A stretch of DNA of 61,426 bases, filler included. It is 12 parts of 12 records of this genome, joined end to end, with 100 filler letters (N's around TTAATTAATTAA, not from the genome) between each part and the next. Parts side by side here need not be neighbours in the genome. Positions count along the whole stretch, not along the records: positions 35,906 to 39,161 come from SRR7504441_17645; 11 more parts are not named here. The stretch is one strand, 5' to 3'. Under the pieces are notes generated by a model, which saw only the letters and a program-made list of their open reading frames with translations, was not told the origin of the DNA and searched no databases. Both the position numbers and the translations under genes were made by a program. Positions 8,662 through 58,575 of this stretch are shown piece after piece; the first letter of the stretch is position 1, and each line of letters starts with the position of its first letter.

Positions 8662-8838
8662 CACAGTCGGTCTGCTGCCCACCCCACACACCTCCCGGCA
8701 GAACGGACAGCGTCCGTTGTTGCACACATCGGCCGGGCCGGGCGCCGGAGTCAAGCCGGCGACTGGCATTGGATGGAAGAGATGGGCTCGTGCACCAGCA
8801 ACAACGGCCCACAGTCGCCACACGGACACCCGCTGCCC

Positions 8839-11800: not shown

Positions 11801-14800
11801 TGGAGTTATGATGTACGACGAGTTACAACTGTTTGATCTGCGATCCCAACAGCCAGAGATCGACCTCTACAAGATTCGCTTCGACTCGGCAACACCGGTG
11901 CAGTCTATGGTGAAGTATATTGAGATATCAAATGTGTTTCGTGCCTACGACTCCGAGGAGCAGTTCCTTGTTTTCATTGCGGACAATGCTCTGCTCATTG
12001 ATGTTGGGGACGACAACAGCGTGACCATTCGCATTAACAAGATTGTCATCGAAATTGCAACAGTCTTCTTCAATGAAGCGATCTCGTTTGTTCCTTGCTT
12101 CAGCTATGCTGACAGTGAGGATGTGATCTTGTTTACCTCGCGTAATATACATTATCTTGTTGACAAATCTGGCCAGTTCAACGAAAATTACTATGGGATG
12201 AAGCATGAGCTCATTGAGAATATCCTCTCGGAGCAAGTATTCGTAGATCTCAACGACGAGCATGTTTTCAAATCTTTCAAGCTGTCCGAGCTGCTCACCG
12301 AGTCCAAGACTGTGATCTACTATCCAGATTACCTGCTTCAGGTTCACAGCCAGCAGCAGCTTATCAACTTGCTCGACTTGGCCATCTACATTCGCAACAT
12401 CTCGTTTTTCATCCTGGTGCTCTTTTACCTGCGCCGCGCCTCTGTCAGGTTGGATTACACTGAGAAGGACAGAAAAGTGACCAAGATTACTGGCCCTTGG
12501 AAACATGCAATCCTGTACGTCTTGAACAAGCAGCACAACCCGCACTACGACCAGATCTTTGAGCGACAATTCTTTGACCTTAACCAGTACGAGCATATGC
12601 CACTGCGAGAATTCATCGAACAGCTCTGCGAAAACTTTACTCATTACCAGCGTTTCACGGACGGACAGTACCAGATCATCCCCACACAAAAACAGAAGAA
12701 CTTCTTGGAGCGCATCATTACCGCTGAGGAGTGCTTCTACTTCTCGGAAGTCGGGTCAGGCAAGACCAAGGTGATACTCCCACTGTTGTGCCAGACCTTC
12801 CTCTCAAACAATATCGAGGCGCACGCGCAGCTTGCACGTGGTGGCAAGCCAAAGCACGTTCTCGTTATCCTTGTTCCCGAGCATCTTGTGCCAGATGCTC
12901 GAACACAGGTGTATCGGTACTGCCTCAATCTGAATTTTCGAGAGGAATACCGCATCTATGACGGTAGCCCTAGATCAATTAGGTGGCATGAGCCTGACGT
13001 TGTGTTTGGATGGCAGATATCTTTTCGCTGCTGCATGACGATGTCCAGCTGCGGGCTGCACCGGCTGCAAGCAAGAGGGGTTACAGCGGTTCCTCCACAC
13101 CTCGCCCGCCGATGAAGCAAATATTCATTACCTCCTTCAACCAATTCAAGAAAGCCCTCACTTATGATCATATATGTGCCAAGGTCCAGCCGTACCGTGA
13201 GCGGATTCTTGTGGTCGTGGATGAAGTCGACGACTTCCTTGATCGTGATAAGCTCGTCTTCAATATTTGCAGCAACAAGAACAACGATTTCCAGAAGCAC
13301 ATTCTTGAGCTCTACTTCCATGTGAGCCGAGCTGTCTATTATGGAGAGATGCCGTCGTCTGAATTGCTAGCCTCAGCAAACAATCCTGCTTACTGGGAGG
13401 AGCTCTATGAAAAATTTGTGGCCATCCACGCCGAGATCCAGGAGAAGTCGAAGTCTATCAACAAGAGCTTTGGGATTTTTAATGAGAAGACCCTACGTCA
13501 CTGCTCTACGAATATTGCTCACGATGTTGAGGGTTACAAATCGTTAATTGCACGTCCTTACGAGTCCGTGAATCGAGCGATGCCAGGTTCGTATTATAGC
13601 GACGTTGAACGCACGATATATCTCACATTCTACATCTTGATGGAAGATGTTGCAAAATACGACGACCTGTTCCAGCAAGAACGCAAGTTCATCAATTTCG
13701 AGTTTTTCACGGAGCACGTGCGTACGGTCGTGCCAACCAGCCCACGCCCAACGACGCCATCGAGCCCACCAGGCTCACACAGCCCACGAAGCCCCCCAAT
13801 GTCGCCTGGAAATCCACCGTTGGATTACGACGACCTGGTCTATGGCAGTATCCCGCTCTCTGCGTTGATGCAAAAGCACCCAGAAACAAAGGACGGGCTC
13901 ACTCGCTTCTTGTATGAAATCATCCTGAGGCGAATGGAGATTCGTGACAAGTCTCGCTCTGTCAACTCTATTGACATCGTCTTCAACTTTGACTGCATTG
14001 GTTTCACCGGAACGCCCTTCATTGACAATTATCCGACTTTTAGCTACATCCAAAACCAGCGCGAGGACCAGATCCCAGACTTGATTGACCGCAGCTTTTA
14101 TGTCTATGCCAACGAGGAGCTCCCCGACGCCGAATTCGAAGACCGCTTCCAGCGCTTTCAAGGCAAGAACAGTAATGTGCTTGTCGAATATGTGCCTTCG
14201 GATTTCATCCAGGCTGCCACTGATGAGTTGGCCATCCTTGCACAGATCTTCGACAGAGAAAGCCAAAGCGCGGGACAGATACCAATGCAGACTGAGACAG
14301 CTGGGGAACAAGCTCAGGAGAGCGTGGAGGAAGGCTTGGTGAGAATAAAATTGGCTGGGAGCGATCAACACGTTCAGCAGTCTTCTGGGTTCAACGCCCT
14401 TGTAGATCTGTGTGGCATCTTTAAAAAGACAACGATTCACGAGGTCCGTGACCTGGTATTGAAGCAATTTGGTCCGGACCGTTTCCATTACATCTATCAT
14501 ATTGATCAGAGCGACTGCAGTGATCGTGTGCTTTATCTCAACTCAAATAACGATGTCCAGTTTGATGAGGAATTTTACAAGTTTTTGTGCAAAACTTATG
14601 GGGCTGGACTGCGAGACAAGGTCTTTTTCTTCATCGACAATCGTAACGTCATTGGCAAAGACATTCCATTCCAGCTGGTCTATCAGCGCCACTTTCACCA
14701 GCCGCTGTTTTTCAAGAGTGTAGTACTTGCTCATGATGTCGAAGACTTCAGCAAGATCTGGCAAGCGATGGGTCGTTCACGGACCATGAACGAGACGCTC

Positions 14801-16218
14801 TTCACCATTTATAAGAGCGAAATTGAAGATGCAGTGAGCCAGGGTGTGCAAGACATCAAGAAGATCCCACTCACGAGGCGGCTCTACGTCCACAACTGCG
14901 ATTGCAGGATGGCTGGTAACATGTCCTCTATCTATCAAACACTCATCTCGCTATTCAACCTGTCGCAAGACCGGCTCTACTACACTGACGAGATCATCAA
15001 CGTGTTCCTCGAGAAGATGGAGATGACCATTTCAGCGAAGGTTCAAAAGCACGAACAAAACATTGGGACCATGATATTTGGCAACCCTGTGCCTTCTGGT
15101 ATTCTTCAGCACATTCTCCGGGATAAGTTTGCCAAAAGCTCGCATCCCGCGGTGTCCTCGGAGCAGCTCACCCCAGCAGTGGCACAGGCATTGCTTCATC
15201 ACATAGTCCAGCAGAAATTCGAGCAGCGCAAGCCGACTGGTGATATATACGATGATTTCCTGCTGTTTCTCTCTGGTGAGCAGCAAAGTCTGATGGAGAT
15301 CAGCTACACCAAGCAAAAGGCAAAGACGAGGGTACGGGAGGCAAAGAAAGATAAAGACAGCGATTCCATGGAGGCTTTTGACAAGAAGTATCAGCTGAAT
15401 ATGCACCAAGAGACCAATAATTACTTTCAGTACACCCTTTCTCCTGAGAGTGACTTTTCCAAGGTGTCACTCAATCTGCCGATTCCGGTGCCAGTCTTCA
15501 AGCTCGCGTATGTGTTGGACAGCAAGTTGCACTATATCAATGTGTACCCGACAGTGCAGTTCCTTTACTCCCACCATATTCAGCAGGAATACATCACTCC
15601 AGAGGTGAAGCAGATCGCAGGCAGCTCACATCCAGAGGTGTCGAGTTTGTACGCGGGATTCTTGGCAGCCATCGAGCAGATCAAAGACCAAGGTGAGCCT
15701 CCTGCCAATGCTGCGCTGTTTGCACTGACAACTTACCTGTTTCAGATGAGAGCCCAGTGATGGTGACGCACCCAACTCAGTTGGACGATACGACAACACA
15801 GCTCGGCATGGAGGTGTTGGTGAACCACGTCCGTCAGGGCCCACAATATACGCTCGCTGCTCTCTCGCAGGGTAAGTATATCATCGGTATGAAAGACCAA
15901 TTCAACATTCATGACCTGCAGACTTATCCTCTCAAGGAGCACATCGAATACATTTCCGACGAGATGGGGTTCATCCTCTTTGATAAGACTGGCCAGGACA
16001 CAAAAAGCGTCGATAGCTTTGGGCCATACTTTATCGAGCAATATATATTGATGGAGGTTCTCTCCAAACAAGAGGTGGCCCAGAATGTTCTGGACTATTA
16101 TGTGCACCACAAAGCCAAGCTCGAGCAAGGGCTTGCTCGATACGATGAAACGCAAGGCAAAGGATTCATTTGTTGGCGGTTCATCAACTCAGAAGCCATG
16201 CATCGCCTGAAACTATGA
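8839..16218 (+). CDS. Giant (~2,354 aa) protein: N-terminal CE-clan/Ulp1-like cysteine protease plus SF2-helicase-like (DUF3638-type) P-loop domain
   Basis: Introns 10478-10526, 10580-10619, 10808-10844, 10918-10957 (GC-AG), 11304-11346, 12964-13016 and 15693-15745 join the ORF fragments into one 7065-nt frame. Motifs SHF/YYDP/QQTGSTC and EVGSGKT, VVDEVD, GFTGT, QAMGRSR. Confidence 0.8.
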
Positions 16219-16677
16219 TTCGAGCTCGACATTAGATAAATACTTCAATGTACTCGTGAGTAAGACTTAGTACTCGGGGAAATAATTCGAGTTGCTTGTT
16301 ACAATAAGACGACGTCCAGTAGTCGTGCTCGTGCTCGAGTTCTTAACTTGTAACTTACTCGCAATCTACACAATGACGACGTTATGCTGATGACGTCGAG
16401 TGTCCGTCAAGTGCTAAGAATCATTAAGACTTTATGTAACTTTNNNNNNNNNNNNNNNNNNNNNNNNNNNNNNNNNNNNNNNNNNNNTTAATTAATTAAN
16501 NNNNNNNNNNNNNNNNNNNNNNNNNNNNNNNNNNNNNNNNNNNGGTGCAATACTGAGTATTTGGCCCACTATGGTCGTGCTAGAGACATGCAAGACACTG
16601 CGAGGACGCCGGAAGAGGTCATCCGTTCCTTCCTCTTAAAGTACTTGGATTATTAAACGTAATCATATGAAGAACCA

Positions 16678-20146: not shown

Positions 20147-20290
20147 GACCTACACTCCTCCACTAAACTTGATAGCAGTTAATTGCTTTANNNNNNNNNN
20201 NNNNNNNNNNNNNNNNNNNNNNNNNNNNNNNNNNTTAATTAATTAANNNNNNNNNNNNNNNNNNNNNNNNNNNNNNNNNNNNNNNNNNNN

Positions 20291-24593: not shown

Positions 24594-25383
24594 TTGGCAT
24601 AGGTTTAACGCTCTCTCATCTATACTGTATGAATTGATTGTTCGTAGAGAGATCAATTCGTTTATTAGAGAAATCAATTCGTTTATTAGGTAAACNNNNN
24701 NNNNNNNNNNNNNNNNNNNNNNNNNNNNNNNNNNNNNNNTTAATTAATTAANNNNNNNNNNNNNNNNNNNNNNNNNNNNNNNNNNNNNNNNNNNNTGGGC
24801 AGACTGGGCTGAGCCCCAAGTACTGTAATCGGCCGCACCGAGACCAAGCGGGCGACTTGCTTGCGGACTTCTAGCGGAGTTTGATTTACTGTAGGCTATC
24901 CGTGCACTGTTGATCTCAGTGTTAACCGATACGTATGTACCCCCTACGTGTCGATGCGTCCGCGCATTGCATTTAAACTAATCTGAACGACAAACATTGT
25001 TATTAAATCAATGTCAGGTACTCGTCAGGTACTCATTCATTGTCTATCATCATCATCGATTATGATTGCATTAGTGTTATTCTCGCTCTTTTTGTAGACA
25101 CGTATACTAGTGAGTATACAATCATGCACCCTATTGTACGTACGCCGACGCTAGGATACTGCTCCCCAGGGCATGCCCAAGATACTGCTCCCCGAGGCAT
25201 GCGCATGCGGCGGCTTGTAGATCTATTAATTTTATCCAGACGCAAAATTATACTGAGCTGCCATAATTATAGCCATAGGCATTACTGCAACTACGGGGTT
25301 AATGAAGTTAACAAGTCATGTGAATCTGGTCTGAATCACAGGGGGCGACTTAGGTACGAGCACCTTACGAGCACCTAGAAACG

Positions 25384-27664: not shown

Positions 27665-29076
27665 TTAGACTACCGTACAACAATTCTCGTCAGTGCGCGT
27701 CGTTCTAGGCTCAGCATCCGGACTCATTTGCATCAGCACCTTGGCGACTGCCAGGTGCCAGGCGGCGCCCCTATCCGGGGTGAGCACAATCTTGAGTCGC
27801 TTCATGCTGCAGATCTTGTAAAAGTCCCAAGGAGTCTTGTCCCCCCGGGCAGGCCCGAAGATGAAGGCTCGCTTGTACACGGCGGTGTTGGAGAGCATGT
27901 AAGGGATCTTGACCAGGTCAAATCTATTCGCAATCTTCTGCAGCTGCACAAGAATACTCGCCTCCCTGCCAGGACATGTCACTCCCGGCCAACCCAGCCA
28001 GCCGCACCCGGCAGTGTCCTCGAACAGCTCGTCTGCAGCCGAGCAGATGGCCTGCACCAACGCGGCGTGGGTCGGTTTGAAGTCGTCTGGGCAGCTCCTA
28101 AGCTTTGCAGGGTCTGTCTCTACAGCCCAGACCGCCCGCGCAGCAGTGAGCGGCCCCTCAACCGCCGCCTTGTGCCGCAGCAGCGCCTGGAAGGCCTCCG
28201 AGTCGCGGGCGGCTGGGATGCCCGAGTAAAGCCCCTCGAGAAGTTGGATCACTTGGAATACTTTGGAGGCTCCGTAGTCTGTTAGCCCATAGTTGTCTGC
28301 CAAGTTGTCTTCGTGCCCAGCTTGTTTGGAACTGGCGTGGAAGGTGGAGGTCTCGACCACGAACAGCTTGGGGTCCTCCAGCAGCCCCCTCGCGCTGCAC
28401 TCTGAAAGGAACTCGTCGACCGTATCGTTGTTGGTCTTACATTGGCCATTGTCGCCCGTGTAGCCTAGCGTGTGAAAGATCACCGCATTGGTGTTTGGCC
28501 CTTTGAGGGCCATCAGCTTGTCCAGCGCCCCGGCCAGCGTGTTGCTGTGCGTATACCTATCGCCCAAGTCGCCGGGCGCAGCCTGAGGTTCGGTTCGCGA
28601 GTATGCTATAACTCTCAGCTCCTTCTGATCCACCAGCCGGTGGACGAGTTGATCCCCCACCCCACACAGCCCCTCGGTCAGCTTGCCGCCCACCACCAGC
28701 GCCACCGTCCCGGCCGGCAATTCGGTCTGGCCCGCCGCGCATTGCCCGGGCAGCTGTTCGTCCTCCATCCGCCATAGTATGCTGTTCCACAGGCAGTACA
28801 GCCGCTCCAGCGCAGCCAAGCCGTCCTCAACCTGCGTCTCCACCGCGCCGTTCAACTGCTCCACCGCCGCCGCCAGTTCCTTGGCGTCCGGCTCCTGCGT
28901 GGGCGACAGGAAAGCCTCCTGCGCCCGAGGGCTGGCACAGGCCTGGGGGGGGGCGGGGGCGCCTGGCAGATCTTCTGGCGCTGCTCCCGGGGAAAGCTGA
29001 GGTACTCGCTGAAGAAACTGTACTCCGACCGGAAGCGCATTGCCTCGGCAGGGGGGTCAGGACCGTCTGCCGCCAT
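27665..29076 (-). CDS. Atypical SDR/Rossmann-fold-like protein
   Basis: ALVVGG...GVG...VIAYSR and YGASK (YxxxK); first exon joined through a 44-nt GC-AG intron 28919-28962. Confidence 0.55.
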
Positions 29077-31854: not shown

Positions 31855-31954
31855 NNNNNNNNNNNNNNNNNNNNNNNNNNNNNNNNNNNNNNNNNNNNTT
31901 AATTAATTAANNNNNNNNNNNNNNNNNNNNNNNNNNNNNNNNNNNNNNNNNNNN

Positions 31955-35805: not shown

Positions 35806-35905
35806 NNNNNNNNNNNNNNNNNNNNNNNNNNNNNNNNNNNNNNNNNNNNTTAATTAATTAANNNNNNNNNNNNNNNNNNNNNNNNNNNNNNNNNNNNNNN
35901 NNNNN

Positions 35906-36031
35906 AGCCAGTATGCCAGCGACCCTTATGCCAGCGACCCTTATGCCAGCGATCCGTACGGGGGCTCGCTGTTCAGAGGCAGCCCTTACGGCCGGGGCGG
36001 CTACCCGGGCGGCTACGGCGGCTACTACTGA
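35906..36031 (+). CDS. 3' end of a Gly/Tyr-rich low-complexity protein
   Basis: SQ(YASDP)3YGGSLFRGSPYGRGGYPGGYGGYY*, encoded by a 15-nt tandem repeat. Confidence 0.55.
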   Translation, partial: SQYASDPYASDPYASDPYGGSLFRGSPYGRGGYPGGYGGYY

Positions 36032-36281
36032 GCCACTGCTAGTAACGTCGACTGATGAGCGCCGGCGATGTACGATGTGGGAAAGCTCAAAAGCCGTGCC
36101 GTAAGGTAGATTTATCGCATTAAATGTTCAGCATAAAACAAATGATAAATATATACCGAGATCTCACTTAGTGCCTGTAAATGCTCTAATCTGGTCGCCC
36201 TAGTGGCCTTTGGGTGGGGTCACCGCCTCTAGTACTAGGGGTGCCGTCTAAGTGCCTGCCTCCATACGAGTTTGTGGCGTG

Positions 36282-36983
36282 TCAGCCCTGCGGTGCGTCG
36301 CGCTGTGCAGGGGCCGTTCGCAGGGCGGGCGATCCGATCAGAGGGTCCACCCGCCCTCGCTGCTCCCGCGTAGCCTCGCCCCACCACTCAAGTTGTGAGA
36401 GCGCGCGACCGGCGTACGCGCCCCACCGCTCGGCCTCGCCTAGCGGGCGTCCTGCTGCGTCGAAGGCGTCCTGCGCCTTGGGCACATGCAGCATCGCTGA
36501 AACGGGAAGGCAGCCCAGTTCGGAGAGCGTCGGCCGGAGCGCATGGGCCGCTCGGGTGCCTCCCCACTGGCCGGCCGAGTAGGACACGATCAGTGACGGC
36601 TTGAACGAGAACACGGAAGACCCGAAGTGGTTGAGCAGGTTGAGCAGCGCCGGGCTGGGCGCGTGGTTGTATTCGGGCGTCACGAACACGTACGCCTCCG
36701 CCGTCGCCAGCCTTGTGGCGAGGCCGTCGAGCCCGACCGGCGGGGTCCCGTAGGCAAAGTGGGGCCGACGGAGCAGCGGCAGGTCCTCGAGCACGGGGTC
36801 CACAGCATCCACCGCGTGGCCACGCTCCGCCAGTGCGGCCTCAATCCAGTGGCCCACCCGCGTTCCAAGCGCCGCCGGGTGCGGAGGGCCCTCCACGCGC
36901 GTCGAGCCGAGCACGAGTGCCACACGCAACGGCGCACCCGCGGAGGCGCTCGAGCAGAGCATCCGGACCGTTCTCGAGCGCAT
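36282..36983 (-). CDS. NADPH-dependent FMN reductase (SsuE/ChrR-like flavoprotein)
   Basis: LVLGSTR, FVTPEYNH, KPSLIVSYSAGQWGGTRA; intronless. Confidence 0.92.
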   Translation of the reverse strand: MRSRTVRMLCSSASAGAPLRVALVLGSTRVEGPPHPAALGTRVGHWIEAALAERGHAVDAVDPVLEDLPLLRRPHFAYGTPPVGLDGLATRLATAEAYVFVTPEYNHAPSPALLNLLNHFGSSVFSFKPSLIVSYSAGQWGGTRAAHALRPTLSELGCLPVSAMLHVPKAQDAFDAAGRPLGEAERWGAYAGRALSQLEWWGEATREQRGRVDPLIGSPALRTAPAQRDAPQG

Positions 36984-37130
36984 GGCCGAGCCGTTCACAC
37001 TCACAGACGTGCTCACAGTCGCAACCCACCCGGCCCGCCGCCCCTCGCTGTCGGTACGGAGCTGGCAACGGCACCATAACGGCTTGTGCACCGCGGCCCC
37101 CTTTGAAGCCGCCAGGGCGGAGAGCGGAGG

Positions 37131-38251
37131 ATGGCGGGCGGTCAGCACGACACCAAGACGGCGGCAGGGCGGGCCGGGTCGGGCCGACGGCTGGGCAGGT
37201 GATCGTGGGCGACGGAATGATCGGCAAGGTGGCCCTAGCGCCGTCAGGCTTGGCGAGGGCGGGACAGACGTGCCTGGTGAGCCGTTTCACCAAGAGCGGC
37301 TGGGACAAGCCGGTGGACCTCCGATGTGCGGCCGGGCTGGCGGTCGGGCTGACGGCCGGGCACAGACCAGCCGACCACGTTTGACAACACTTCGGTGCCG
37401 CTTGTGTTAACGGACGAGGAAAGCGGCGAGTGGGAGCACTACGACCCATCGAGAGAGGGGCACATCGAGGAGGACCGGGTCATGCTCGAGGCAACGGGAA
37501 TGTCCGTTGGAATCCGTTACCGTTGGTCAGGTGTGGGACACGGCCGGGCAGGAGTCGATGGATACGCTGAGGACGTTGGCATACGCCAAAACCCACCTGT
37601 TCCTGATAGGTAACGGACATTCCTACCCGAGCTGACGGATGGCAGGGTACAGCATCGACAACCCGACCTCACTCAAGAACGTGCTCGAGAGCTGGCAACT
37701 CGAGCTGAACGAGCAGGCGCTGACCACTCACCTGATCAGCACCACCGACCGGATGTGTTCAGGTGGCGAGCTGTCCCATCTCGAGGACCGCCCCGCGCAT
37801 CCTAGTCGGCACCAAGGTGGGGCGTCCGTTACATTCTATTAATAGCTGGGCAGCGCGACCTGCGCGAGGCCGCACTGGAGGCCGACAGCAGCGCGGCCTC
37901 ACAGTTTGTCTCCTACGAGCAGGCGTACGAGGTGTTGCTGTATGGCTGGGCGGCCAGACACCAGGGGGGCAGGTGGCGAGCAAGCTGGACCGTTGCGTGG
38001 GGCTGGTGGAGACCTCAGCGATCAGCAAGCACGGGGTGCATCAGCTGGTCCGCCTCATAGTGCAGGCCGGGATGGCGTACGCGCTCGACCCGAGGGAGCG
38101 ATGCCCTGTCAAACTAGAAGACTTCGCCCCAGCCGCCCCCGAGCAGCCGGAGCAGCCGGAGCAGCCGGAGCAGCCGGTGATTCGTAGGCAGACCAAGCGA
38201 AGCGAGTCGCAGAACGTGGACGAGGATGCGGGCTGCTGCGCGCTGAGTTGA
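37131..38251 (+). CDS. Rho-family small GTPase, 9 exons
   Basis: Introns 37161-37198, 37229-37267, 37326-37365, 37491-37530, 37610-37645, 37717-37762, 37817-37853 and 37932-37972 give VIVGDGMIGKTCL, YQPTTFDN, VWDTAGQE, ILVGTKRDLR, ETSA and a C-terminal CCALS prenylation motif. Confidence 0.9.
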
Positions 38252-38447
38252 GCCCCGCCACCATATAGTGATTACCAGTACAGCGATTGAGCCGTTGCCC
38301 GCCAATAAAAATGCTCACAATCAATAGTTTCGGCCGCGCATCGCAGGAACCTAGACGTAACTGACGAACTGAGTTGTACTGCCGGCGACGTGTGTCAACG
38401 GCATTGATCGACCCACCCGGCTTGGAGTGGGTGGCTGGGGGTGGAGG

Positions 38448-38772
38448 ATGGGGTTCTCATTCGGGGACCTTTACATCTGCGGGCTGATGGTGCTCAACGG
38501 CCTGGCCGTGCTGCACGAGCAAAAGTTCCTGGCCAAATGTGGCTGGCCGGCGGGCCTCTAGGCTGAGGATGGGGCAGACGGGCTGGTGGCAGACCAGATG
38601 GACCCGATGTTTGACCAGTCGAGCAGCAAGGCCAAGATGGTCAAGGTGATCAACGCGGTCCAGACCGTCATGCGCTGTGCCCCCCCCCCCCCCCGGGCCG
38701 GCCGGAGCGAGGGCAGGGCCGTTGGTGCTGGTGAACGTGCTGACTATACTCTACTTGCTGCTGCTCGGCTGA
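38448..38772 (+). CDS. YOS1: Yos1/IER3IP1 ER-Golgi transport protein, 2 introns
   Basis: Spliced MGFSFGDLYICGLMVLNGLAVLHEQKFLAK...KMVKVINAVQTVMRWPLVLVNVLTILYLLLLG*. Confidence 0.88.
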
Positions 38773-39561
38773 ACGGGCAGCTTTGTGTGGGAGCCCGGCG
38801 CTGGACTCGGCCTGCCGTACTATAGTTTAAATGATCGCGCCTGCTGACTATTCGAATCCATACGAGTAGCTTCGATCGACTGCTCGCAGCGTCACCCCCA
38901 AGTCCCCCCACCGACCAGGCTTCTCCCCACCGACAAGGCTCTCGCCGGTTACGGTGAACGCCCGGTCGGGCGCCAGGCGGAGCATCGCCGTGTCATTAAT
39001 GTTACTCGTACGCAGTATAATGTTTATTCACGTTTATTGCGCTAGGCTGAGATGCTCACACTCGTACTCGTAGTAACACTCGTAGCCGATCAACCATGCG
39101 ATCAGCTAAGCTTAGTCTTCAGCCCTACTTCAGCCCGGCCACTAGCCTCGGAGTCCCTTCGNNNNNNNNNNNNNNNNNNNNNNNNNNNNNNNNNNNNNNN
39201 NNNNNTTAATTAATTAANNNNNNNNNNNNNNNNNNNNNNNNNNNNNNNNNNNNNNNNNNNNGCCGTGGCGTGCAGCATTCGCTGCGAGGACCAAGCCGGG
39301 CACCTGGTTTTAGCGCGACCGGGTGTCTTGGAGCTGTCCGAGCCGGAGGTCGAGCGTCCTAGAGCGTCCGGATGCTCGAGCTGAAGAAGCTGCTGACGAC
39401 TAGGCGTGGGACCGTACAAGTCATGTACTCGTACATGTAATGTTACACGTAATACACTTACATATAATTCTAGGATTGTGTCGCACTCCAGAATGTTCAA
39501 TAGTTATAGTGGAGTAATAGTGTCCAGAGTGCTGTGCATTTTGAACTACTTACCTAGGCCC

Positions 39562-42500
39562 CTAAGTATCATGTCTGCATGCCATTGCTGCCCGGAAGGC
39601 TCCTGCTTGCAGATGACAGTCGACGTTGCATGTCATGCCTCCGCTTCTCATGAATGTTGTTATCCCACCTGCAGCCCAATCCATCAACCAAGCCACAACC
39701 AAGCAGCACGCTAACATCGACTCCAGTATATTATCACAAGACAGCAATACTCTGTCGACAGCACTTACTCAGAGGTCAGAGAATTCAGTCGTGAGTCGCT
39801 GGCCACAGGAGGGACCTCGCCGCTGCTCATGCCCTGCAGAAGTTCATAAAATGAAATAACACGACAGCTGGACACAAACCTGGTGGAACTCTCGCCGGTC
39901 AATCACGCCATCCTTGTTGGCATCAAGCTGGTTGAACAGAGACCCTGCCTGAGAACACCACAATTAGCTATTGATTGTCGGTGGAGCACCTGGTCCCTGA
40001 GCACTTGCTCGCCCAGCTTCTGGATCAGCAGCTCCTCCTCTCGCTCTTGTGCCAGCCGCCTGCCCCCAGCTCAATCACGATTGACGAGCCTTTATCCCGT
40101 TAGTACCGGTAGGCCTCCATCCCGAGCTGACGAACAAGATCATTCCTGACCTGATCATCCTCCGGCCTGCACTCACCATGATCTCATCATATTAGCTCAG
40201 CCAGCCCACCCTGGCTCTCCCTGCAGCCTCAACCGCTCGGCCACTCGCTGCCGCAGCGCTGCGCCTGCACGCACAGTCACTTGGGACTTGCTAACGGCTG
40301 GGGCACCGTTCAGACTGAGCCTTGGGTTAGCGTTATCCAGCTGAGGCTTACACATGCCCATCCCCATCTGCACCGCCTCAGCCCCTGCTGCCGGCCCCCA
40401 AAGTCACCGCTGCCCGCCCTGTCTCAGGGAAACCTGTCCACACTCAGTCAATCCCTTACTAACTAATAGTAGGCACCCAGGTGCTGGAGCATCTCGGTGC
40501 GAGCATCGTCGAGCCGCTCTGTCGTGCTTCGCTGTGCAGCGGCCTTAGCCCGGTGCTGGGCATTAGCCTCCTCCAGGGCAGCAACCCGCTGCTCAAGCAC
40601 AGCCTTCTCTGTGTTGGTCTTGTCAAGCTGTTCGTTGGTGGTTGCCAGGTTCTTGTTGGCGTCGGCCTCGGCCATCTTGGCCTTCTTGAGGGCCTCAATG
40701 TTGTTCATTGCCTGCAGAAGTTGGTGAGAGGCATTGGAGTTGGGTCTAAGTCGCCTGCGAAGCGAAGTCCTCCATGCTTTGCCTCGTCTCACCGAGTTCT
40801 CGCTCCAGCGCAAGTCGCGCCTCGTGCTCAGCGCATTGCGACCTGAGGCTGGGCTCGAATGCGATATCATATTATTATGGCCCGAAACCTCTCCAGTTCG
40901 GTGGCTCTCTGCTCGGACATTGCACGGAAGCCCTGCTCGGCGGCCAGCTGACTGTGCGCCTCCTGGCACTTGCCAGACCATTCGTTCAGCTCCCTTGTGT
41001 ACTGAGCTTCCCTGCAAGTGCTTGGTTAGACACGTTCCCCAACCAATGCTTTCAACAGACCAAATGGCTTGCTGCTGGCTGGCGTGCTCCTGGCTCTGCA
41101 CCTTGTGCTCCTCTAGGCTCCGTTGCAGCTGCTGGACCAGCAACTGCCGCCCCACCCTCAGTAATTAGTCCATAATCCCAAGTGACGCCTGTTCGTGCTC
41201 AAATCTCTGCCGCCAGTTGCCCTGCTCGGCCGCAGTGGCTGCTAGCTGTCGTTCAAGCCCGTCCTTGCACTCTGTCAGCCTGCCAGGACTCAACACTCCA
41301 TTCAATTGGAGCAGCAATCGGAGTACCGGCAGATCTCGCGCTCCATCATTGAGATTTTCTGCACCTGCCACAGGTGCTTAGCCAGGCCACACTAGACAGT
41401 TAATAATAGCAATGTTATCAGCGGCAGGGAGTACCTGCTCCAGGTTCGACTCGAGACCGTCCTGCGGGTGATAGGCCCGGCGTTGCGGTGAGATCTAAAC
41501 AGCAAGTCAGCACATGGCAGTCTGTTGGAGCCACTGAGCGCATCGGCGAAACAGACTTGCGCAGCTTGTTGATGGCAGGCGGCGGCTTTGTGGCGGCCAG
41601 CTCGTCCAACTGATCATGCAGCCTGGCTACGTTGGCCTGGCCTGGACCAACGCTCAGCCAGCTCGTTTGGTTGTCACACCTTGCGCAGCCCGGTCCATCG
41701 CTTGCTGGGTCTGGGCCATTGTCTCAAAGTGGAACGCCTTGCTTGCCTCCATCTCCTGCCCCGTCTTACAATTCTGTCGTACAGGGATGGTGTACCGCCG
41801 CCATCGGATCCGGCTGGGCGGAGTGGGGGTGGGGCACATGCTCGGCCCACTCGAGCGTCTGGGCACACAGTCACCCCTCGCATGCAACCAACGCTCACCT
41901 GGCGCATCTTCTGGACCATCTGCCGGCGCGCATTGATCGCAGGGCTCGGGTGCTCCCGGATCAGTGGTGGGGCCGCAACTCTCACAGGTTCCTGCAATCT
42001 AGCGCTGACTGGTACCGGCTCGATCTCGGGCTCCGGAGCCGGTTGCGGCTTAGTCCCACCGAGGGAATCGAGGCGGGACTGGGTCTCAGTTGGGCGAGCT
42101 GGGACTGTGCGGGGCTCCATGCTGCTAGCAACTGAGAGTGATCGAGACTTCTTGAAGATTTCACTCTTGCGCCGGTTGGCTTGCTCAATCATCGCTTCAA
42201 AATCTGCCCCCAATCTTCGGCCAATAGACCAGAAATTGACAAACCTTCGGCCTTATCTGCGAGCTCCACACTGGGTGGAACCATCACTGGTTCCTGCTGT
42301 GGCTCCTCGCTCTTACTGGGCTCGACGCTTTGGCCAGGCTCAGTGCTTGGTGTCGACTCTAGGCTCCCGCCGTGCACCGACTGGGTAACAGACAGGTCGC
42401 CCTCCCTGGCACTCTGGAAGGGTGTAATGCTTGGCTCCACGCTGGACAGCGCGCTCTTCCGGGGTCCAATGCTCTCAGACTGGGTACAGCGGTGCTCTGG

Positions 42501-42570: not shown

Positions 42571-42936
42571 NNNNNNNNNNNNNNNNNNNNNNNNNNNNNN
42601 NNNNNNNNNNNNNNTTAATTAATTAANNNNNNNNNNNNNNNNNNNNNNNNNNNNNNNNNNNNNNNNNNNNACCTCCCAAAACACCCCTTACGACTGCCCC
42701 TCGGTCAATTTGACAGCAATTTGACGTGATTGTGACTTTTGAAATTTCCGATTTCCGAGCCTAGGCTGGATCCATCAAAATTATTGACTTCGACGCATTC
42801 GCGATCTCGGACTCTAGAGAAAGCTCTTTATATTTAGAATGTACAAGTTATATCACAGAGTTGTACATGTTGTCCGTACTCATAGATGGTCCAGGTCGAG
42901 AAGCAGAATATAATGTTATATACATGACTAAGATGG

Positions 42937-45900
42937 CTATTCGTCCTCCTCTGGTTCTTCGGGTTTGATCTGCCAATCAAAAGATCAGTTCATGTAGGTA
43001 TGTACCTATAGCACAATACCTTGCACATATAGATCCAGGTTGAGTTGACACCACAGTAATACGGGGAGCAGCAGGCACCAAAGGCAAAAAAGAACTCTTC
43101 ATCCTCATCCATCATATCCATAATCCGCTCCTTCTCATCCACCTCCTCAGAATATGAGAAACGATCGATGATCCGGTTCTTGATCCGCTTCGCATCTGAG
43201 AATGAGAAATTGATGGGAATACCCTCGAAAGAATGATTCTTAGGAATAGTTCTCTGTATCTCAGCTTTCCAAAGCTGAATCCGGCGACGAACACGCTTCA
43301 GGTCCTCCTCCTCTTCCACCACCATTTCGTCCTCCATGAGCTTGAGCCCCTTTGACAACACCTGCTCAATGTTGCCTGGTTGCGGAGGGTCGGCCTCTGG
43401 GTCAAATTCCCAGATGTTGGTGTCAAGCATTTCCTTCTCACGTGCAAAACGGATACCCTCCTTAAGTATGTGCAGAATCTTCTTGGCCAGCTCATTAGCC
43501 TTACTCTGCTTGAGTCGCCCGCCAATCTGAGGTTCATCATAAAATACCTTCTTGGCGTCCTCGTCAGGTGTAAACCCTTCATCAAATGAGCAAAACGGCT
43601 TCCACTGAGATAAATCGTCCACCTCATACATGCATTTGGACGGGTTGACCGAAAACTGGATATTTGCCCACGTATTTTCAGCATTTGTGAGCGTGTGTAT
43701 CTGTGCATATGGCGGAAATCGCTCAGGCAGAGGCTCTGGGTATTCATCACCTGACCACCCTCAGCTCACACAGTGCTCGGTCAGGTCAGTGTACGTACCA
43801 GAGTCTGAGTCGTCATCTGCCAAATTCAGACCCTGCAGCATCGCCAACTCCTCTTGCAGCCCATCGTCTGGCTTGAGCATCTCGAAAGATAACCGCTCGT
43901 CGGGCTCAAAAAACGCCACAAACTTCTCATCCTCGCCTTCAGCCTCGGGATCTGAGGCAAGGCGTCAGCTACGCAGCTATGTTGGGCCAAAGCACCTCCC
44001 CCTTCACCCTCTGCACCAGCAGCCTCGTCTTCATCGTCTGAATCTTCTTCCTCACAACCGGCCCATCGCTCATCTAATCTATATATAAACCCTGTGATGG
44101 TTTCAAAGAAGGCTACTGAGCCATCTGGCCAGCGGACCAGCACCCAGACATGCTCGCCATCTGACTGCTTCACCACCAGCTCGTCAGTTTGCTCGTCCAT
44201 TTCTTGCACCAGTGCTCGGCCCGTGCAAAGGTATGAATCCAGCCCAAGTGCGAGCAGCATATTAACCAGCATGATAGCGTGGTCCTCACTGTCGCCCTTC
44301 TTCACGTCTAGAAAGAACTTTGGAGATGCCCATGAATTTCCTCCATCGGATGTTTGGAGCATCTCGTCGTCTGCTTCAAAAGTGATGGAGGACACCATTC
44401 GTGCAACCTCCTTGTAATTGGATAAGTCGAGAGGCATCCCCTGATACCAACATCAGCAAATCATACAGCTGGCCAATTTACCCCCATTGGAGCTACGTAC
44501 TCTGGTAAAAAGTGCTCTACCATTCGTTCATCCATCGCCTTCCATGTGTAACCTCCCCGTCTCATTACCTTCTTGTGTGCCCTGGGGGCCAAAGCCTGCA
44601 GGCAGAGCTCAGAGACCCAGCCAAGCTGGAGGCTGCACCTTGATGTTCCTAGACCATGAATCCGCACGCTCGTTGAACTCCAGAGGCAGAACCTTCTTCT
44701 CTGTATCTTTGGGCTTTTCCAGAAAGATCTCGTTCTCGTCCTCATCGAGCAGCACAGGGGTGAACCATGCGCGGAGCTCGAGTGTGGCTTTCTTGCTCGA
44801 GCATTGTTCGAGCTTGATGGTCTTCTGCAAGATTCTGGTGTCCTCTATGTCATCCACTGTGGTCTTTAGGTTCTCATTGATCTCCCAGAGACCTGCTCGA
44901 ACCGTCAGCCGAGGCATTTGCTACCCTGGCTACCAAATTCAGCATTTCCATGGAAATCACACGTGCCGTCCTCGTCCCAGTCAAACACAGAGATCTTGAC
45001 ATAAGGTTGCTGGCACAGGCTCACTAACTTCTAAAGCCTAGCAGCTTGCCTTTTGGCCTAGGGTCTCTTCATCAAATTTGGACAGTAGAATAGGAAAGAA
45101 CAACCGGTCCCCGAATTGTGGATTGAGACTTTTCTTCACCACACCAGTGCTCTGCTTCATAGACTCCCACTCACATGTCACGTAGCAGTCCGTGTATCTG
45201 CCAGCACAGCTCAACAAAAACTCAGGCCTAGCTCCAGCACCCGTTCTCATCAGTGGCAGGCAGGTTTTCACATTTCACGATCTCGATCGCCATGTATTTG
45301 ACTCCCGGCTTGAGCCTCACCGGGGCACCAGTTTGCATGTACCTGCAACCCCAGTTGGCAATACAAACCTTCAAGCAATCACCGTGGCATTGACTCTATT
45401 TCGGCATAGCCCTTGGCCTCACCCCATGGGATGCAACGGATTACCGTCTGGAACTGCCCTGCATACACCTCCTCCTGTACTTTCTCTGTGAAACTCAGTC
45501 CAGATTTGATGTATGCCCTCGCCCCTGAGCCTTTTTCGACCACAAAACAGCCATTCAGAGGCATAGACGCCCAACCAATCACCTAGACCCAGCTTAGACC
45601 GGCCGCCGCCCGGCTGCGCTGACCTTGTCGAAACCGAACATATCCCAGTGCCAGATCTTAATTTGGAGCATTTCATCGCTCAGCTCCGACCAAGTTCCGT
45701 TGTAGCGCAGCACGTCTGTCATCTCCGAGTACCTGCGTGCGGTCAGCCTCGAGGATCGGCTAGCGCTGGGAACTTTGGAAAAAGCGTGTTGAACTCAGTT
45801 TCTGATTTGCACTTCCGACCAAAGTGCCCTCCCGCTACAAAGAACTTCTTCCAGTCTCCTTGGATCTGACGCCCGGCTCGCGGGCGGGCGGGCCCGGAGG

Positions 45901-46788
45901 CGCACCGAGAACTCAATGAACGGATCCGAGGTACCCGAGTCGTCAGCTGGGCAAAGGTCCCTTCCCTGCTGCGCACTCAGACAGGGCTAGGGTTAGGGGG
46001 CGAGCCTGCCACTCAATGAAGCTGATCTCGAAATCAAACACCTCCTCGAAATAAATATTGAACTTGAGCCGCCCGTAGGTCACCTGCCCGGCCGCTCACC
46101 CTCCGAGCCCGGCGCCCGCACACCTCGCCCTCGCCTTTGATCGCTTGCTTCACGACGTGGGTCTGCTGCACTGAGTCGTTTGCCAGCTTCCGCAGCTTGA
46201 TCTCCTTATGGAACACTTCCTGTTTGAAGCAGCCACGGCCCTCGCGGCACTGGGTCCCCAGCCCGAAGCACTCGCAATTCTCGCACTTGCAGCACGGTGG
46301 TCGATGGATGCATTTAATCACCAAATTCTGCTCCTTCAGCTCATCGTAAGTCGCCTCGAGAGTCATGAGTCCAGATTCCTTCTCGAACCTGCGCAGCTCG
46401 CCCGTCTCGATACGCAGCAGCGTGTCCGTCTCGAAGCTTGGCCCGGGGCTGCCCTCGAGCTCGATCCCGCCTGCAGGCACCCTGAGCCAGTGCGTAACGC
46501 AGCAGCAAAAATACCGCCCTCCGCGCGCTTGTCCACCTCCGTAAACAGCCCGCCCAGCGTGAAGTTGAAGAACGGCGACCAGGTATCAGCAAACACGGAC
46601 TCGAACTGGATATCTTTAATGTAGCCCGCCCACTGCCGCTGCTTGTAGGGCTCCGGTGCACTCTTCTCTTTCTTCTTCTTCTTACGACCCTTCTTCGGGC
46701 CCTGCAGCAGCGTGATCGGACCCACCACGCCAGTCCGACGGGGCGTACCGCATCGCCACCCTCGTCGCCGCCCTCGTCGCCGCCCTCG
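42937..46788 (-). CDS. CEP76/CC2D2A-like C2-domain plus transglutaminase-like ciliary/centriolar protein, 5'-truncated
   Basis: C2 motifs GRDLCPADDSGTSDPF, KKSLNPQF, VFDWD; WASPKFFLDVKKGDSEDHAIML...EHVWVL...FFETITG; many short introns including GC-AG 45010-45049 and 45966-46005. Confidence 0.8.
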
Positions 46789-46888
46789 NNNNNNNNNNNN
46801 NNNNNNNNNNNNNNNNNNNNNNNNNNNNNNNNTTAATTAATTAANNNNNNNNNNNNNNNNNNNNNNNNNNNNNNNNNNNNNNNNNNNN

Positions 46889-54175: not shown

Positions 54176-54620
54176 NNNNNNNNNNNNNNNNNNNNNNNNN
54201 NNNNNNNNNNNNNNNNNNNTTAATTAATTAANNNNNNNNNNNNNNNNNNNNNNNNNNNNNNNNNNNNNNNNNNNNGCTGAGGCATTCGAGTCTTGATAGA
54301 TACGAGTGCCGAACACGAGTCTCTGCTGAACAAATAATTCACTTTTCGAACGTTCTAAGCGTTTTACATGCAATGTCATGTAAATGTCATGTAGAAACTA
54401 GTCAGTGCTGTTACATGTACCTGGTAGTCACTAAAATAATATTAATGCCATCGCCGCTCAGCCTTGTCTCCACGAGGTGAGGCTCTAGAGTCTTATCTAA
54501 GTCTTATCTAGAGTCTGAGGTTAGCCCGAGGCGCGGTTGATCAGGCTAGATCAGGCTATGCGGTTGTAACGCGGTTGACGGTACTGTACTACATCATGTA
54601 CAATCATGGAGGAGTTTAAT

Positions 54621-54808: not shown

Positions 54809-57800
54809 TCAGAGCCCGCCAGACTCAAGCCTCGGTGTGCAACCTAGCACTAGGTACCGGCCCAATGCATTATTGATGCCCTGGGCTGCAGATCCGCTCC
54901 AGTCGGCTGAAGGATCGAGCACCCGCATGTGCCTGCCCACCCGATCAGTCACGCGCCAGCATTCGCTACTGACCGGAGCTCTTCGTTCACCCGCTCGATC
55001 TCCTGCTGGTGCGCGTCTCGCCACTGCTCCTGCGCCGAGCTATAAGACGGACCGGTGCCCATATTCGGGTTGCCTGTTGGACTTCGCTCACAAGCATCTC
55101 CAGCTCTCTTCTGCCCTCAAGCTCTGCAAGCTGACTCGCCACCTGCCACAAACCATCACTCGGCCGCTCCGCGCCGCCAGCACCTGCTGCCCAGCGGCCT
55201 GCAACTCGGCCTCGCGCTGCTGACCCGACCGACGTTCCTCCTCTCGCTGCCGGCACTGTCAGGCTCGGGCCATTCTGAGCTAGGCTCACTTGCTGCTGCC
55301 AGGCCTCCAGTCGGGCACAGCTATTCGAGTATTTGGACTCAGCAATCAGCCTGAGCCACTCTCAGCCACAAGCCTGCGAGCCAGCACCTAGCCGCCTCAT
55401 CCATATGGAGCTTGCTCGTGCACAGCTGGGCCAGCGCCGCCAAAGCAGCCCCGAGCGACACGGCCAGCGCATCGTGCTCGCCGCAGCCGGTGCTGGTGCT
55501 AATTGCAGCCGCCTCTAGCTCGAGCGCCTCGGCCACCATGTGCCGCAGCTCGACCCGGGCCGCCACCCCGCCCACTGTGGTGAGCACCTTCCTGTAGAAC
55601 TCGACCAGAGGCAGCGTGATCCACGGGCGTGCCCCAGCCAACGCCAGCGGAGTTAGCCGCCGCAGCGCGCTCTCTGTGTCCGCCATTGCGTCGCCCACTT
55701 GCTTCACGTGCTCCGCAAACTGGCGCTGCCCCACCAATTCTCAGCCATCGCCACAATCCCACTAACCTGTGATGTCAGCAGCTGGAGCTGGAGCGCTGTG
55801 TCGGGTTGCACCTCATCGTCGTCCTCGCGGCCAAATTGTTCAACGGCCATGATTGCGGCTGAGCGCTGTATTTGGTCCACACGGTTCTGATGCCGGCCGG
55901 TCGCATGCTTGACCTGTTTGCACGATCATTCACTAGCATCATAACGACTTGCCTCCTCGATCAGCTTCTGAGTGGACATTTTAGTTTCGGTAGCGTCGGC
56001 TGCCTCGGCAAGCACTAGTTCCTGCCGGTGACCCTCAGCCTCAGACATGTCAGGCAATCTCACCTGGATTTTGGATTCAAGCGCGTCCCAGTCCAACTTG
56101 CTTGTGTCCTTGTTGTGTCTGGATTGCACCGTAGCTAGCACAGCACGCTGCATCGCCTCGATCTCACTGCACTGGTGTTCAGCTCGCACCCGCCTGCCAT
56201 CCAGGAATAATTCTCAGCCACACTCAACCAGCTGTTCTCAGCGACACGCACCTCACCACTTCGGCTGCCCCACGCTGGTCGGCACGGGCGACTGTTGATC
56301 CGACCACCTGCCACAAGCCTTGTCAGCTAGATCAACCTTCTCAGCCGCAGCTGCACCTGGGCGGCGATGACTCTAGCTTCGGCCAGCAGAGTGTCCTGCT
56401 GACACTGAATCTTATTAGTCTGCCCCATTCCTCAGACGCGATCGGCGGCTCGCCCACCTGACACACTGCCTCCAGCCTAGCCTGATCCTTAAGCAGCTCA
56501 GCTTCTCTCGCCAGCGCCTCATGCCACGCCCGCTCGGTCCTGTCTAGCGTGGCTTCGACCCCCCTCATCTCCAGCTCTAGCATTGAACGCTGCTCAGCCA
56601 ACGCCTCTTGCTTGTCTTTGAGCAGAGCTGTTCGCTGCTCGAGCATGTCCCTGTCCTTGATCGAGCACTGACCCTCTAGCTCCTGCACTTGCTTAATCGG
56701 CACCAGCTCCCCGGGCCTGCTCACCTTGATTCGGCTCGAGTCAGCTTCCAGCTTGGCCTCCATCTCCTGCTGCCTACCCGATGCCTCCTGCACCCTCGTC
56801 AGATTCAGTCACAGCAACCAGTTGCCGCGAGTAGTTGCTCGTAACCAGCTGTCCCGGATTCCATCCGCTGGGTCACTCCGTTCAGCTCCACCCTTACCTC
56901 AGCTATCTCGTCGTCCTTAGCCTACCACCGGGTCTCTGCGACAACCAACCAGGGACTCGCCTGCAGCTCCTTGACCTTCTCGCTAAGCAGGTTAGAGCTC
57001 TCTTTCAGCTCCTTGCGCAAGTCAGTTGTCTCCTGTGCTCCCACCATCTCAGCTCGAGGCTAATATTAGAGCCAAATTATGCTCAGGGCTGAGGGTGGGT
57101 CAGTATCGGGTAGACTCACATCGCGTTGCTTCTTGATTTCCTCCTCTAGCTGACTCACCGCAGCTTCTAGCTCCTCCTTCTCCTTCTCCCTAGCGCTCTT
57201 CATTTTTTTAATCAGCAGCTCGTAACTATCTTTCTGCTCCTCCATCTCAGCAACGATTTTCTGTCTTTCTTTGTCGGACTCTTCGAGCTTGTCCGAGATG
57301 GTTTTGTCAATAGCCTTGGGCAGCGCATCACCAAACTCTGAAAGAAAGGCTTGGCGATCACGCCAATTGTTGCGCACCTTGCAGCTGCTCTGATGCTGGC
57401 AGTGGTGCTGTCACCGAGGGCTCGATTTTGGCTCCAAGACCTTTGACATTCTCCACTAACCTGTTGGCTATTCTCAGCCACATACAAAGTGCTTAAGCCA
57501 TGATCACTCACTGCTCGCCGTCCTTGACGAGCTGGTCATATCGTTCCTTCTCCTGTTCCACACTTGCCTCCAGGTCGCCCACCTGCGATTAAGTCACTCT
57601 CAGTCCTGATAATAGGCAAGCTTGCCTGTCCTGCAAGCTTCTTCAGGGCCTCCACAGCTGTCGAGTCAGCGAGCGTCTCAAGCACTTTCTCTAGTGCCTG
57701 TCAGTTGGTCAATCGCAAACAGTTGGTGTGAACTCGCCTGCACTTCGCCCATCAGTGAACGCTTCTTGACTTTGAGATCATTGATGATCTAAACCACAAG

Positions 57801-58166: not shown

Positions 58167-58575
58167 NNNNNNNNNNNNNNNNNNNNNNNNNNNNNNNNNN
58201 NNNNNNNNNNTTAATTAATTAANNNNNNNNNNNNNNNNNNNNNNNNNNNNNNNNNNNNNNNNNNNNGTGAATCGCATCCGGTCGATGGAATCATAGATCA
58301 TCAAGTGCTTATCAAGTGCTCAGCATTACTCGTAAAAGCACCAGCGCTCTCATGATGCGACTCGGATCATAGTATTTTATACATGTAAGTACTTGTAATA
58401 TAATTTCATGCTTGTACTCATAATTAATGCGTCCCGGATGTTCCATAGCACGACTATTTACTAACTATTTACTATGCGACATGCCGGCACGGCAGTGGCG
58501 TTGGCCATACTGAACCAGGGACAGTTACGCACAACACAATGATGGTACCATGCATGATTGCGATCGCACCTGTTG

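Follow-up and report, generated by a model that had tools for sequence, protein, structure and literature searches.

Genomic sequence points to frequent GC-AG introns among the ~40-nt introns of contigs that carry a Rho-like GTPase gene

How often can nuclear introns begin with GC instead of GT, and does a high frequency of such introns call for an altered spliceosome? This question is raised by a Rho-like small GTPase gene at 37131-38251 on the plus strand of a 61,426-nt stretch of DNA (the window), which was joined from 12 contigs of one genome. The initial annotation had read three of the eight introns of this gene, and at least nine introns in the window, as GC-AG introns with degenerate donors. 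It had proposed that 5' splice sites in this lineage are selected by exonic AG and intron length, with altered recognition by U1, U5 and U6. Judged on genomic sequence, the observation at the nine sites is confirmed and the excess of GC-AG introns is real. The nine introns lie at the given positions with lengths of 38, 39, 40, 44, 38, 40, 46, 40 and 40 nt and with the donor hexamers listed; each ends in AG, each is in phase 0, and each follows an exonic G, which is part of an AG in eight. The structure of the target gene is as follows (a slash marks an exon-intron boundary, and exon letters are in lower case).

37131-38251, plus strand: gene of a Rho-like small GTPase, 9 exons; 8 introns (36-46 nt), of which three are GC-AG and five GT-AG
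37161-37198, plus strand: intron 1, GC-AG, 38 nt, phase 0, acg/GCGGCA...GGGCAG/gtg
37229-37267, plus strand: intron 2, GT-AG, 39 nt, phase 0, in frame and stop-free, splitting the P-loop between GK and T
37326-37365, plus strand: intron 3, GT-AG, 40 nt, phase 1
37491-37530, plus strand: intron 4, GC-AG, 40 nt, phase 0, gag/GCAACG...GGTCAG/gtg
37610-37645, plus strand: intron 5, GT-AG, 36 nt, phase 1
37717-37762, plus strand: intron 6, GC-AG, 46 nt, phase 0, cag/GCGCTG...GTTCAG/gtg
37817-37853, plus strand: intron 7, GT-AG, 37 nt, phase 0
37932-37972, plus strand: intron 8, GT-AG, 41 nt, phase 0

Removal of the eight introns leaves an 804-nt frame that is open from ATG to stop and encodes 267 amino acids with a C-terminal CCALS box of the CAAX type. 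The motifs of the Rho family follow one another in this product: the P-loop, DTAGQE (switch II), the Rho-type tryptophan (Trp) helix, ILVGTK and CCALS. Read-through of intron 2 would add 13 residues within the GxxxxGK[ST] motif. Exon 5 corresponds to positions 52-77 of the Pfam Ras profile (E = 6e-5), and exon 6, over the helix with the conserved Trp, gave weak matches in the PDB to Rho-family chains only (52 sequences, E about 0.5 or worse). The exon-level Pfam and PDB searches were otherwise mostly too weak to inform.

For the target gene, all frame-keeping pairs of an AG acceptor with a GC or GT donor were enumerated. From the ATG at 37131, only GC donors reach the VIVGDG exon across intron 1, and no GT donor does so. 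The position, phase and GC donor of this intron are matched in a second, paralogous Rho-like gene (1-75, minus strand), which is cut by the window end and retains 23 nt of the downstream exon. Splicing there joins MAFAK to VVIVGDG.

24-61, minus strand: GC-AG intron, 38 nt, phase 0, aag/GCAAGG...TGGCAG/gtc, first intron of the second Rho-like gene

At intron 4, the sole GT alternative of plausible length (37479-37530, 52 nt) removes VMLE just before VWDTAGQE. The strand before exon 5 must derive from the upstream exon because exon 5 begins at Ras profile position 52, and we take VMLE to fit the strand pattern preceding VWDTAGQE, a judgement that draws on the Pfam coordinates and on what is generally known of small GTPases. 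At intron 6, a GC donor is used in every solution that retains both the exon-6 Trp stretch, which aligns with RhoA, and the ILVGTK exon. One GT alternative with an intact ILVGTK exon is 82 nt long and loses the RhoA-aligned stretch, and the three remaining GT solutions cut the ILVGTK exon short. The assignment of three of the eight introns to the GC-AG class is thus upheld by the open spliced frame and by the conserved segments that are lost in the GT alternatives.

Two further sites were assessed by a test that is blind to splice signals. Segments of 15-150 nt were removed in every way that kept an open frame, whatever the dinucleotides at their ends, and the resulting peptide was scored against a homologue.

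45010-45049, minus strand: GC-AG intron, 40 nt, phase 0, aag/GCAAGC...TGCCAG/caa, in a C2/CEP76-like gene, validated by homology
8437-8475, minus strand: GC-AG intron, 39 nt, phase 0, gag/GCGCCC...GCTGCAG/gtg, in an RPUSD2-type pseudouridine synthase gene, validated by homology

At the first site, the homologue was the transcript-derived relative P0002 (70% identity), which lends the junction indirect support at the RNA level. Removals of 40 nt scored best (124-127) among 1120 frame-keeping solutions, with a collinear alignment. GC-AG was the sole canonical-type boundary among the top removals, and the best GT-AG solution reached 53. For the second site, 150 homologues were obtained with the catalytic exon as the query. 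Removal of 8437-8475 raised the BLASTP score in all 111 homologues that gave a match and ranked first of 2553 solutions, with 87.8 vs. 64.8 for read-through and 71.8 for the best GT-AG solution (a 21-nt removal). A 13-residue gap falls exactly at this site in the four tblastn alignments that span it (4/4). In the positive controls, GT-AG was a top solution at 45198-45240, 44893-44933 and 44596-44638 and came 6-7 points below the top at 44441-44481 and 43751-43798, while the other junctions of the RPUSD2-type gene (8290-8326 and 8128-8168) were recovered as GT-AG. GC-AG therefore makes up two of the nine homology-validated introns, one of them with the poor donor GCGCCC.

For the window as a whole, introns were called with a Viterbi gene finder. 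It scored codons by frame-specific log-odds, modelled introns of 30-60 nt explicitly, and took its splice matrices and its length prior from first-pass GT introns. It is blind to in-frame, stop-free introns, such as 8437-8475 and 37229-37267, and after training it reproduced exactly all eight frame-obligatory junctions validated by homology. A flat-penalty gene finder had been dropped; it over-called GC (54/115). The run restricted to GT gave 88 introns with a median of 41 nt, 78 of which were within 36-48 nt, in agreement with the earlier description of very short and tightly sized introns. When GC was allowed beside GT, 90 GT and 19 GC introns were called (109 in all). When GT was instead combined with one of 14 control dinucleotides, each control gave 3-25 spurious introns, 161 in total. 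The raw count of frame-rescuing GC sites is thus no evidence, since every control dinucleotide also yields calls.

The quality of the calls separates GC from the controls. The total score gain was largest for GC (125 vs. 10-83), and a gain of at least 5.3 was reached by eight GC introns vs. nine of the 161 control calls (a mean of 0.64 per control). Intron 4 of the target gene, with a gain of 8.8, ranked top among all GC calls. Exonic AG stood before 14 of the 17 phase-0 GC calls that follow G vs. 15 of 53 in the controls. Among NNG/GCN codon pairs in the predicted coding sequence, AG was found in 187 of 679 (28%), for which a hand-computed binomial test gives about 5e-6; the claim that GC introns almost always follow exonic AG was thus borne out. 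A simple mixture reading of the AG excess suggests that about 14 GC calls, or about 15% of the introns, are real. The earlier estimate of roughly one in seven introns is consistent with 19 of 109 calls and with two of nine homology-validated introns, and the fraction, taken from gene-finder calls in 61 kb, is far above the ~1% of model eukaryotes. Two other measures were uninformative. When donor...CAG pairs were counted by length, the background was too high for a GC peak to be seen, whether or not a crude filter for coding sequence was applied, and the branch motif CTRA within -32 to -7 gave no separation (0.50 for GT, 0.37 for GC and 0.38 for the control).

The remaining sites differ in how well they are founded. 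Three of them belong to the nine listed originally, and eight are new candidates.

10918-10957, plus strand: candidate GC-AG intron, 40 nt, phase 0, cag/GCCACC, gain 5.5, ab initio support only
28919-28962, minus strand: candidate GC-AG intron, 44 nt, phase 0, cag/GCGCCC, gain 6.3, ab initio support only
45966-46005, minus strand: ambiguous, either GC-AG (40 nt, or 37 nt with the other acceptor of a CAGCAG tandem) or GT-AG at 45976-46012 (37 nt, frame kept), gain 0.6
57583-57625, minus strand: new candidate, 43 nt, phase 0, cag/GCAAGC, gain 7.8, consensus 6/7, obligatory frameshift
57698-57737, minus strand: new candidate, 40 nt, phase 0, cag/GCGAGT, gain 5.3, consensus 6/7
55914-55952, minus strand: new candidate, 39 nt, phase 0, gag/GCAAGT, gain 3.1, consensus 6/7, in-frame stop (read by eye)
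56922-56960, minus strand: new candidate, 39 nt, phase 0, cag/GCGAGT, TAG acceptor, gain 3.9, consensus 6/7
55030-55073, minus strand: new candidate, 44 nt, phase 0, cag/GCAACC, gain 5.3
56788-56825, minus strand: new candidate, 38 nt, phase 0, gcg/GCAACT, gain 5.6, CTGAC 15 nt 5' of the acceptor
41144-41188, minus strand: new candidate, 45 nt, phase 0, cag/GCGTCA, gain 5.5, CTGAG 17 nt 5' of the acceptor
40712-40754, minus strand: new candidate, 43 nt, phase 0, cag/GCGACT, gain 2.2

The GT alternatives at 10918-10957 are 73-133 nt long and lie beyond the observed length range. All eight new candidates lie on the minus strand in phase 0, and several have donors of the AG/GCAAG or AG/GCGAG type. 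At 45966-45971 on the minus strand, the tandem acceptor offers two in-frame choices 3 nt apart, which makes it a possible NAGNAG alternative-splicing site. Among the nine original sites, for all of which frame or motif integrity had been said to favour GC, two are validated by homology, four are supported by the protein family (37161, 37491, 37717 and 24-61), and two have ab initio support. The statement does not extend to 45966, where the GT alternative also works.

Could most of these calls be modelling artefacts, so that the true GC-AG fraction is only a few percent? Wrong start codons, alternative GT sites, read-through insertions and chance AG/GC...CAG in coding sequence rich in Gln, Glu, Lys and Ala would all create such calls. 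The spurious introns found with every control dinucleotide speak for this explanation, as do the GT alternative at 45966, the hypothetical 38-codon first exon on which 28919-28962 rests, and the position of six candidates within coiled-coil genes. It would have to account, however, for the two sites validated with homologues, for the lack of a workable GT solution at three introns of the target gene, and for the fact that GC outranks all controls by total gain, by the number of high-gain calls and by the AG context. The exact recovery of the homology-validated junctions by the trained finder also stands against it. We consider a wholesale artefact improbable.

The donors themselves bear on how the introns would be recognised. 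The mode of intron size is 40-41 nt, and the GC-AG set (38-46 nt) is in line with the GT distribution. Acceptors are CAG in 93% of the introns, and the mean intron G+C is 0.63. GT donors are weak, with G at -1 in 86%, G or A at +3 in 88% and little information beyond G/GTR. The 17 GC candidates match CAG/G.AAGT better than the 88 GT introns do (4.24 vs. 2.91 of 7 positions; one-sided Mann-Whitney p = 1.9e-4). Their A is more frequent at -2 (88% vs. 43%) and at +4 (65% vs. 23%), and the training matrices had no preference for A at +4. Three or fewer consensus matches were found in only 5 of the 17. The description of the GC donors as degenerate was not supported; they are closer to the consensus than the GT donors. 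All 17 listed candidates have a GC donor and an AG acceptor, and none of the donors carries the U12-type motif [AG]TATCC.

Phase also differs: the 14 best GC calls are without exception in phase 0, vs. 42 of the 88 GT introns. Codons ending in AG make up 12.6% of all codons, and A should be uncommon at third positions because real open reading frames (ORFs) have high third-position G+C. By our estimate, the requirement for AG before the donor would, under this codon usage, explain most of the phase-0 bias.

An altered recognition of 5' splice sites was proposed at the outset. Changed U1, U5 or U6 RNAs or proteins would leave position +2 effectively free, and the donor would be set by exonic AG and intron length. 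The weakness of the GT donors past G/GTR, the tightly constrained lengths, the G before all credible GC introns with its frequent AG, and the poor donor of the homology-validated intron at 8437-8475 are what such a system would show. A free +2 also predicts GA and GG donors, however. In the control runs, GA yielded 9 calls, none after AG, and GG yielded 12, one of them after AG; all were of low gain. The GC donors are nearer than the GT donors to the canonical consensus for U1 pairing, as normal U1 predicts. In the parts of the survey by Iwata & Gotoh (2011, PMC3033335) covered here, the putative U1 of the GC-AG-rich Aureococcus anophagefferens and Micromonas pusilla keeps a canonical 5' end, and the cause of the rise in GC-AG is left open. 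No small nuclear RNA gene was matched in the window at the Rfam gathering score, and relaxing to E <= 1 gave two chance-level matches only. Altered recognition is, on this balance, an unlikely explanation.

Base errors (T read as C) in low-coverage contigs could create GC donors, and the contigs are short (3-11 kb) and contain homopolymers such as the C-run near 38680, but errors would hardly strike intron position +2 in ~15% of introns across six contigs, correlate with exonic AG and A at +4, or place a GC donor at the same intron position in two paralogous Rho-like genes, which leaves this explanation with almost no credence.

The explanation that we consider probable is that these are ordinary U2-type spliceosomal introns in a GC-rich, intron-dense protist, in which C at +2 is tolerated by a normal spliceosome through compensation elsewhere in the donor. 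Three direct observations stand behind it: homology gives the boundaries at two sites, GC exceeds the control dinucleotides, and the GC donors show a pattern of compensation. From these, we infer actual splicing, intron definition, the pairing with U1 and U5, and the origin in GC bias. As the introns are tiny and the GT donors weak, introns of ~40 nt are probably recognised as whole units (intron definition), with the donor, the branch region, the CAG acceptor and the length read jointly. About 10-17% of the introns would carry C for T at donor +2. Their other donor positions would pair better than the average with U5 and with the 5' end of a normal U1, and this would make them tolerable. The compensating pairs would be provided by exonic AG nearly always and by A at +4 often. 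Since this AG must also code in a genome rich in G+C at third positions, GC introns would occur almost only after NAG codons, that is, in phase 0. Mutation or gene conversion biased towards GC, which has been proposed for other protists of high G+C, is the likely driver. Position +2 would not be free under this explanation, as the GA and GG control runs gave no comparable signal.

Several points weigh against the tolerance of C at +2 by a normal spliceosome, or against the calls on which it draws. The gene finder was home-made and self-trained on 61 kb, and its first pass had hand-set bonuses for exonic G at -1 and acceptor C at -3. In the CEP76-like gene, three GC introns and one GT intron of the untrained first pass were overturned by homology, and the GC ones became GT-AG. 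As any second dinucleotide gives calls, there are surely false ones among the 19 for GC. The six candidates in coiled-coil genes are less secure since codon pairs joining Gln, Glu or Lys to Ala are abundant there, and chance AG/GC is frequent. Compensation is not universal, as five GC donors are poor (e.g., GCGCCC and GCGGCA), one of them homology-validated. The intron at 8437-8475 is in frame and stop-free, and a lineage-specific 13-residue insertion is a formal possibility there. Finally, the G+C of the contigs (0.53-0.64 per contig, 0.48-0.65 in 2-kb windows) is below that of the published GC-AG-rich species (about 66-70%).

The origin of the contigs was approached through their proteins. 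The C2/CEP76-like gene is the sole taxonomic lead for them.

42990-45564, minus strand: C2 + CEP76-like gene, with Pfam PF00168, PF24656 and PF24652 on its relatives

A word search with its last exon gave transcript-derived proteins with 70-71% identity as the best matches, and the next best reached 44-46%. One of these transcript-derived proteins is labelled as coming from the telonemid Telonema subtile (EukProt EP00656), the nearest relative found. On the sequence of this one gene, the host lineage appears to be telonemid-like. Long ORFs encode further eukaryotic proteins, namely a kinesin motor, a GH3 glycosidase, a homocysteine S-methyltransferase, a PhyH protein, an FMN reductase and a class 3 lipase. 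Other searches added no lead. Protein word searches with the last GTPase exon and with a stretch of exon 5 gave no match, and neither did a viral scan with exon 5. A scan of genome contigs with the kinesin as the query found no relative DNA. A search of the ESM Atlas with a 590-residue ORF returned bacterial hypothetical clusters only, without a taxonomic lead. A metagenome scan with the last GTPase exon gave only five matches to PEQ repeats, all spurious. Their source is a perfect PEQ-type tandem repeat (GAGCAGCCG x4) at 38139-38175 on the plus strand, in the C-terminal tail of the GTPase. No description of telonemid nuclear introns or of a telonemid nuclear genome was found in the covered parts of the literature searched, PMC12432456 included.

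The 12 contigs are 3.2-11 kb long, and the target gene lies on that at 35906-39161. They are separate and are joined by linkers, so no meaning is attached to the order or orientation of the pieces. The 11 identical spacers each consist of 44 N, TTAATTAATTAA and 44 N, a linker with stops in six frames.

5323-5422, 16444-16543, 20191-20290, 24696-24795, 31855-31954 and 35806-35905: spacers
39162-39261, 42571-42670, 46789-46888, 54176-54275 and 58167-58266: spacers, continued

An intronless gene for an NADPH-dependent FMN reductase (36282-36962, minus strand; Pfam E = 9e-24) stands head-to-head with the GTPase gene that starts at 37131 on the plus strand. The two start codons are ~170 nt apart, which points to a very compact bidirectional promoter region. 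Downstream, a run of ~15 C lies inside a predicted 40-nt intron (38677-38716, plus strand) of a small gene at 38448-38772; such homopolymers may be prone to assembly error. Elsewhere in the window, 8773-15760 on the plus strand is predicted to encode a protein of ~2,300 residues with very long exons, a GSGKT motif resembling a P-loop, and a G+C of ~0.49 compared with 0.6 or more nearby. Five large exons of it gave no match in a Pfam search. The product could come from a mobile element or virus, or it could be a lineage-specific giant protein.

How do these introns compare with known systems? GC-AG introns of model eukaryotes have a stronger flanking consensus. The introns described here resemble them in their GC...AG ends, in the compensation by exonic AG and a better +3 to +6, and in the lack of a U12-type donor motif. 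They differ in being about tenfold commoner, in that all credible cases are in phase 0, and in that several donors, including the homology-validated GCGCCC, are far from the GCAAGT type. Dinoflagellate nuclear introns use GC and GA donors and have G after the acceptor. The present introns share with them an exonic AG 5' of the donor and, in most GC candidates (74-86%), a G that follows the acceptor, whereas GA donors leave no sign here (9 GA calls, maximum gain 3.1, none after AG), GT makes up ~85% of donors, and the introns are ~40 nt long. Micro-intron systems are found in the nucleomorphs of chlorarachniophytes and in ciliates. Narrow lengths and weak splice signals, which suggest that the intron is recognised as a unit, are common to those systems and the present one, but their introns are AT-rich and 15-30 nt long, while those described here are GC-rich (mean 0.63) and 36-48 nt. 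In Paramecium, introns are ~25 nt (PMC5014332, in the part covered).

The closest parallels are found in GC-rich algae. The GC-AG fraction is 39.6% in Aureococcus anophagefferens, 22.2% in Micromonas pusilla and 7.7% in Chlorella sp. in the covered parts of the survey by Iwata & Gotoh (2011, PMC3033335), in which GC-AG makes up 1.3% of ~2.46 million introns from 61 species and these three have the highest-G+C genomes. As in these algae, going by that portion of the survey, the frequency of U2-type GC-AG introns in this GC-rich unicellular eukaryote would be 10-40 times the usual one. The differences from them are the ~40-nt micro-introns, the lower G+C of the contigs and the telonemid-like lineage, and here the ~15% is estimated from 61 kb of genomic sequence. 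The pattern is of an already published kind; what sets it apart is the lineage and the 40-nt length of the introns.

A stronger reading would take the contigs as a first look at telonemid-like nuclear gene architecture, with ~40-nt introns, G/GTR donors and ~15% phase-0 GC-AG introns after NAG, in which the 5' site is chosen mainly by the exon-end AG (through U5 loop 1) and by intron length. It would concern an orphan phylum, some of the GC-AG introns would have hardly any complementarity to U1, and one intron position would be common to the paralogous Rho genes. We regard it as doubtful. If donors such as GCGCCC, GCGGCA and GCGCTG do splice efficiently, the mode of recognition would be distinct from U1 pairing.

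There are practical consequences for annotation. About one-third of the genes in these contigs would be broken or truncated by gene finders limited to GT donors or tuned to longer introns. The GTPase requires three GC donors, and ORF-based or prokaryote-style callers would read 37229-37267 and 8437-8475 as 13-residue insertions. The finding is of interest mainly to specialists in intron evolution and protist genome annotation, and it opens no long-standing question. With it, a distant lineage with 40-nt introns would join the few GC-rich protists in which GC-AG reaches at least 10%. It speaks for the view that GC-AG expansions arise repeatedly from GC-biased sequence evolution that a normal spliceosome tolerates. 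The strict placement of these introns in phase 0 after NAG codons would mean that codon usage limits where GC donors can persist.

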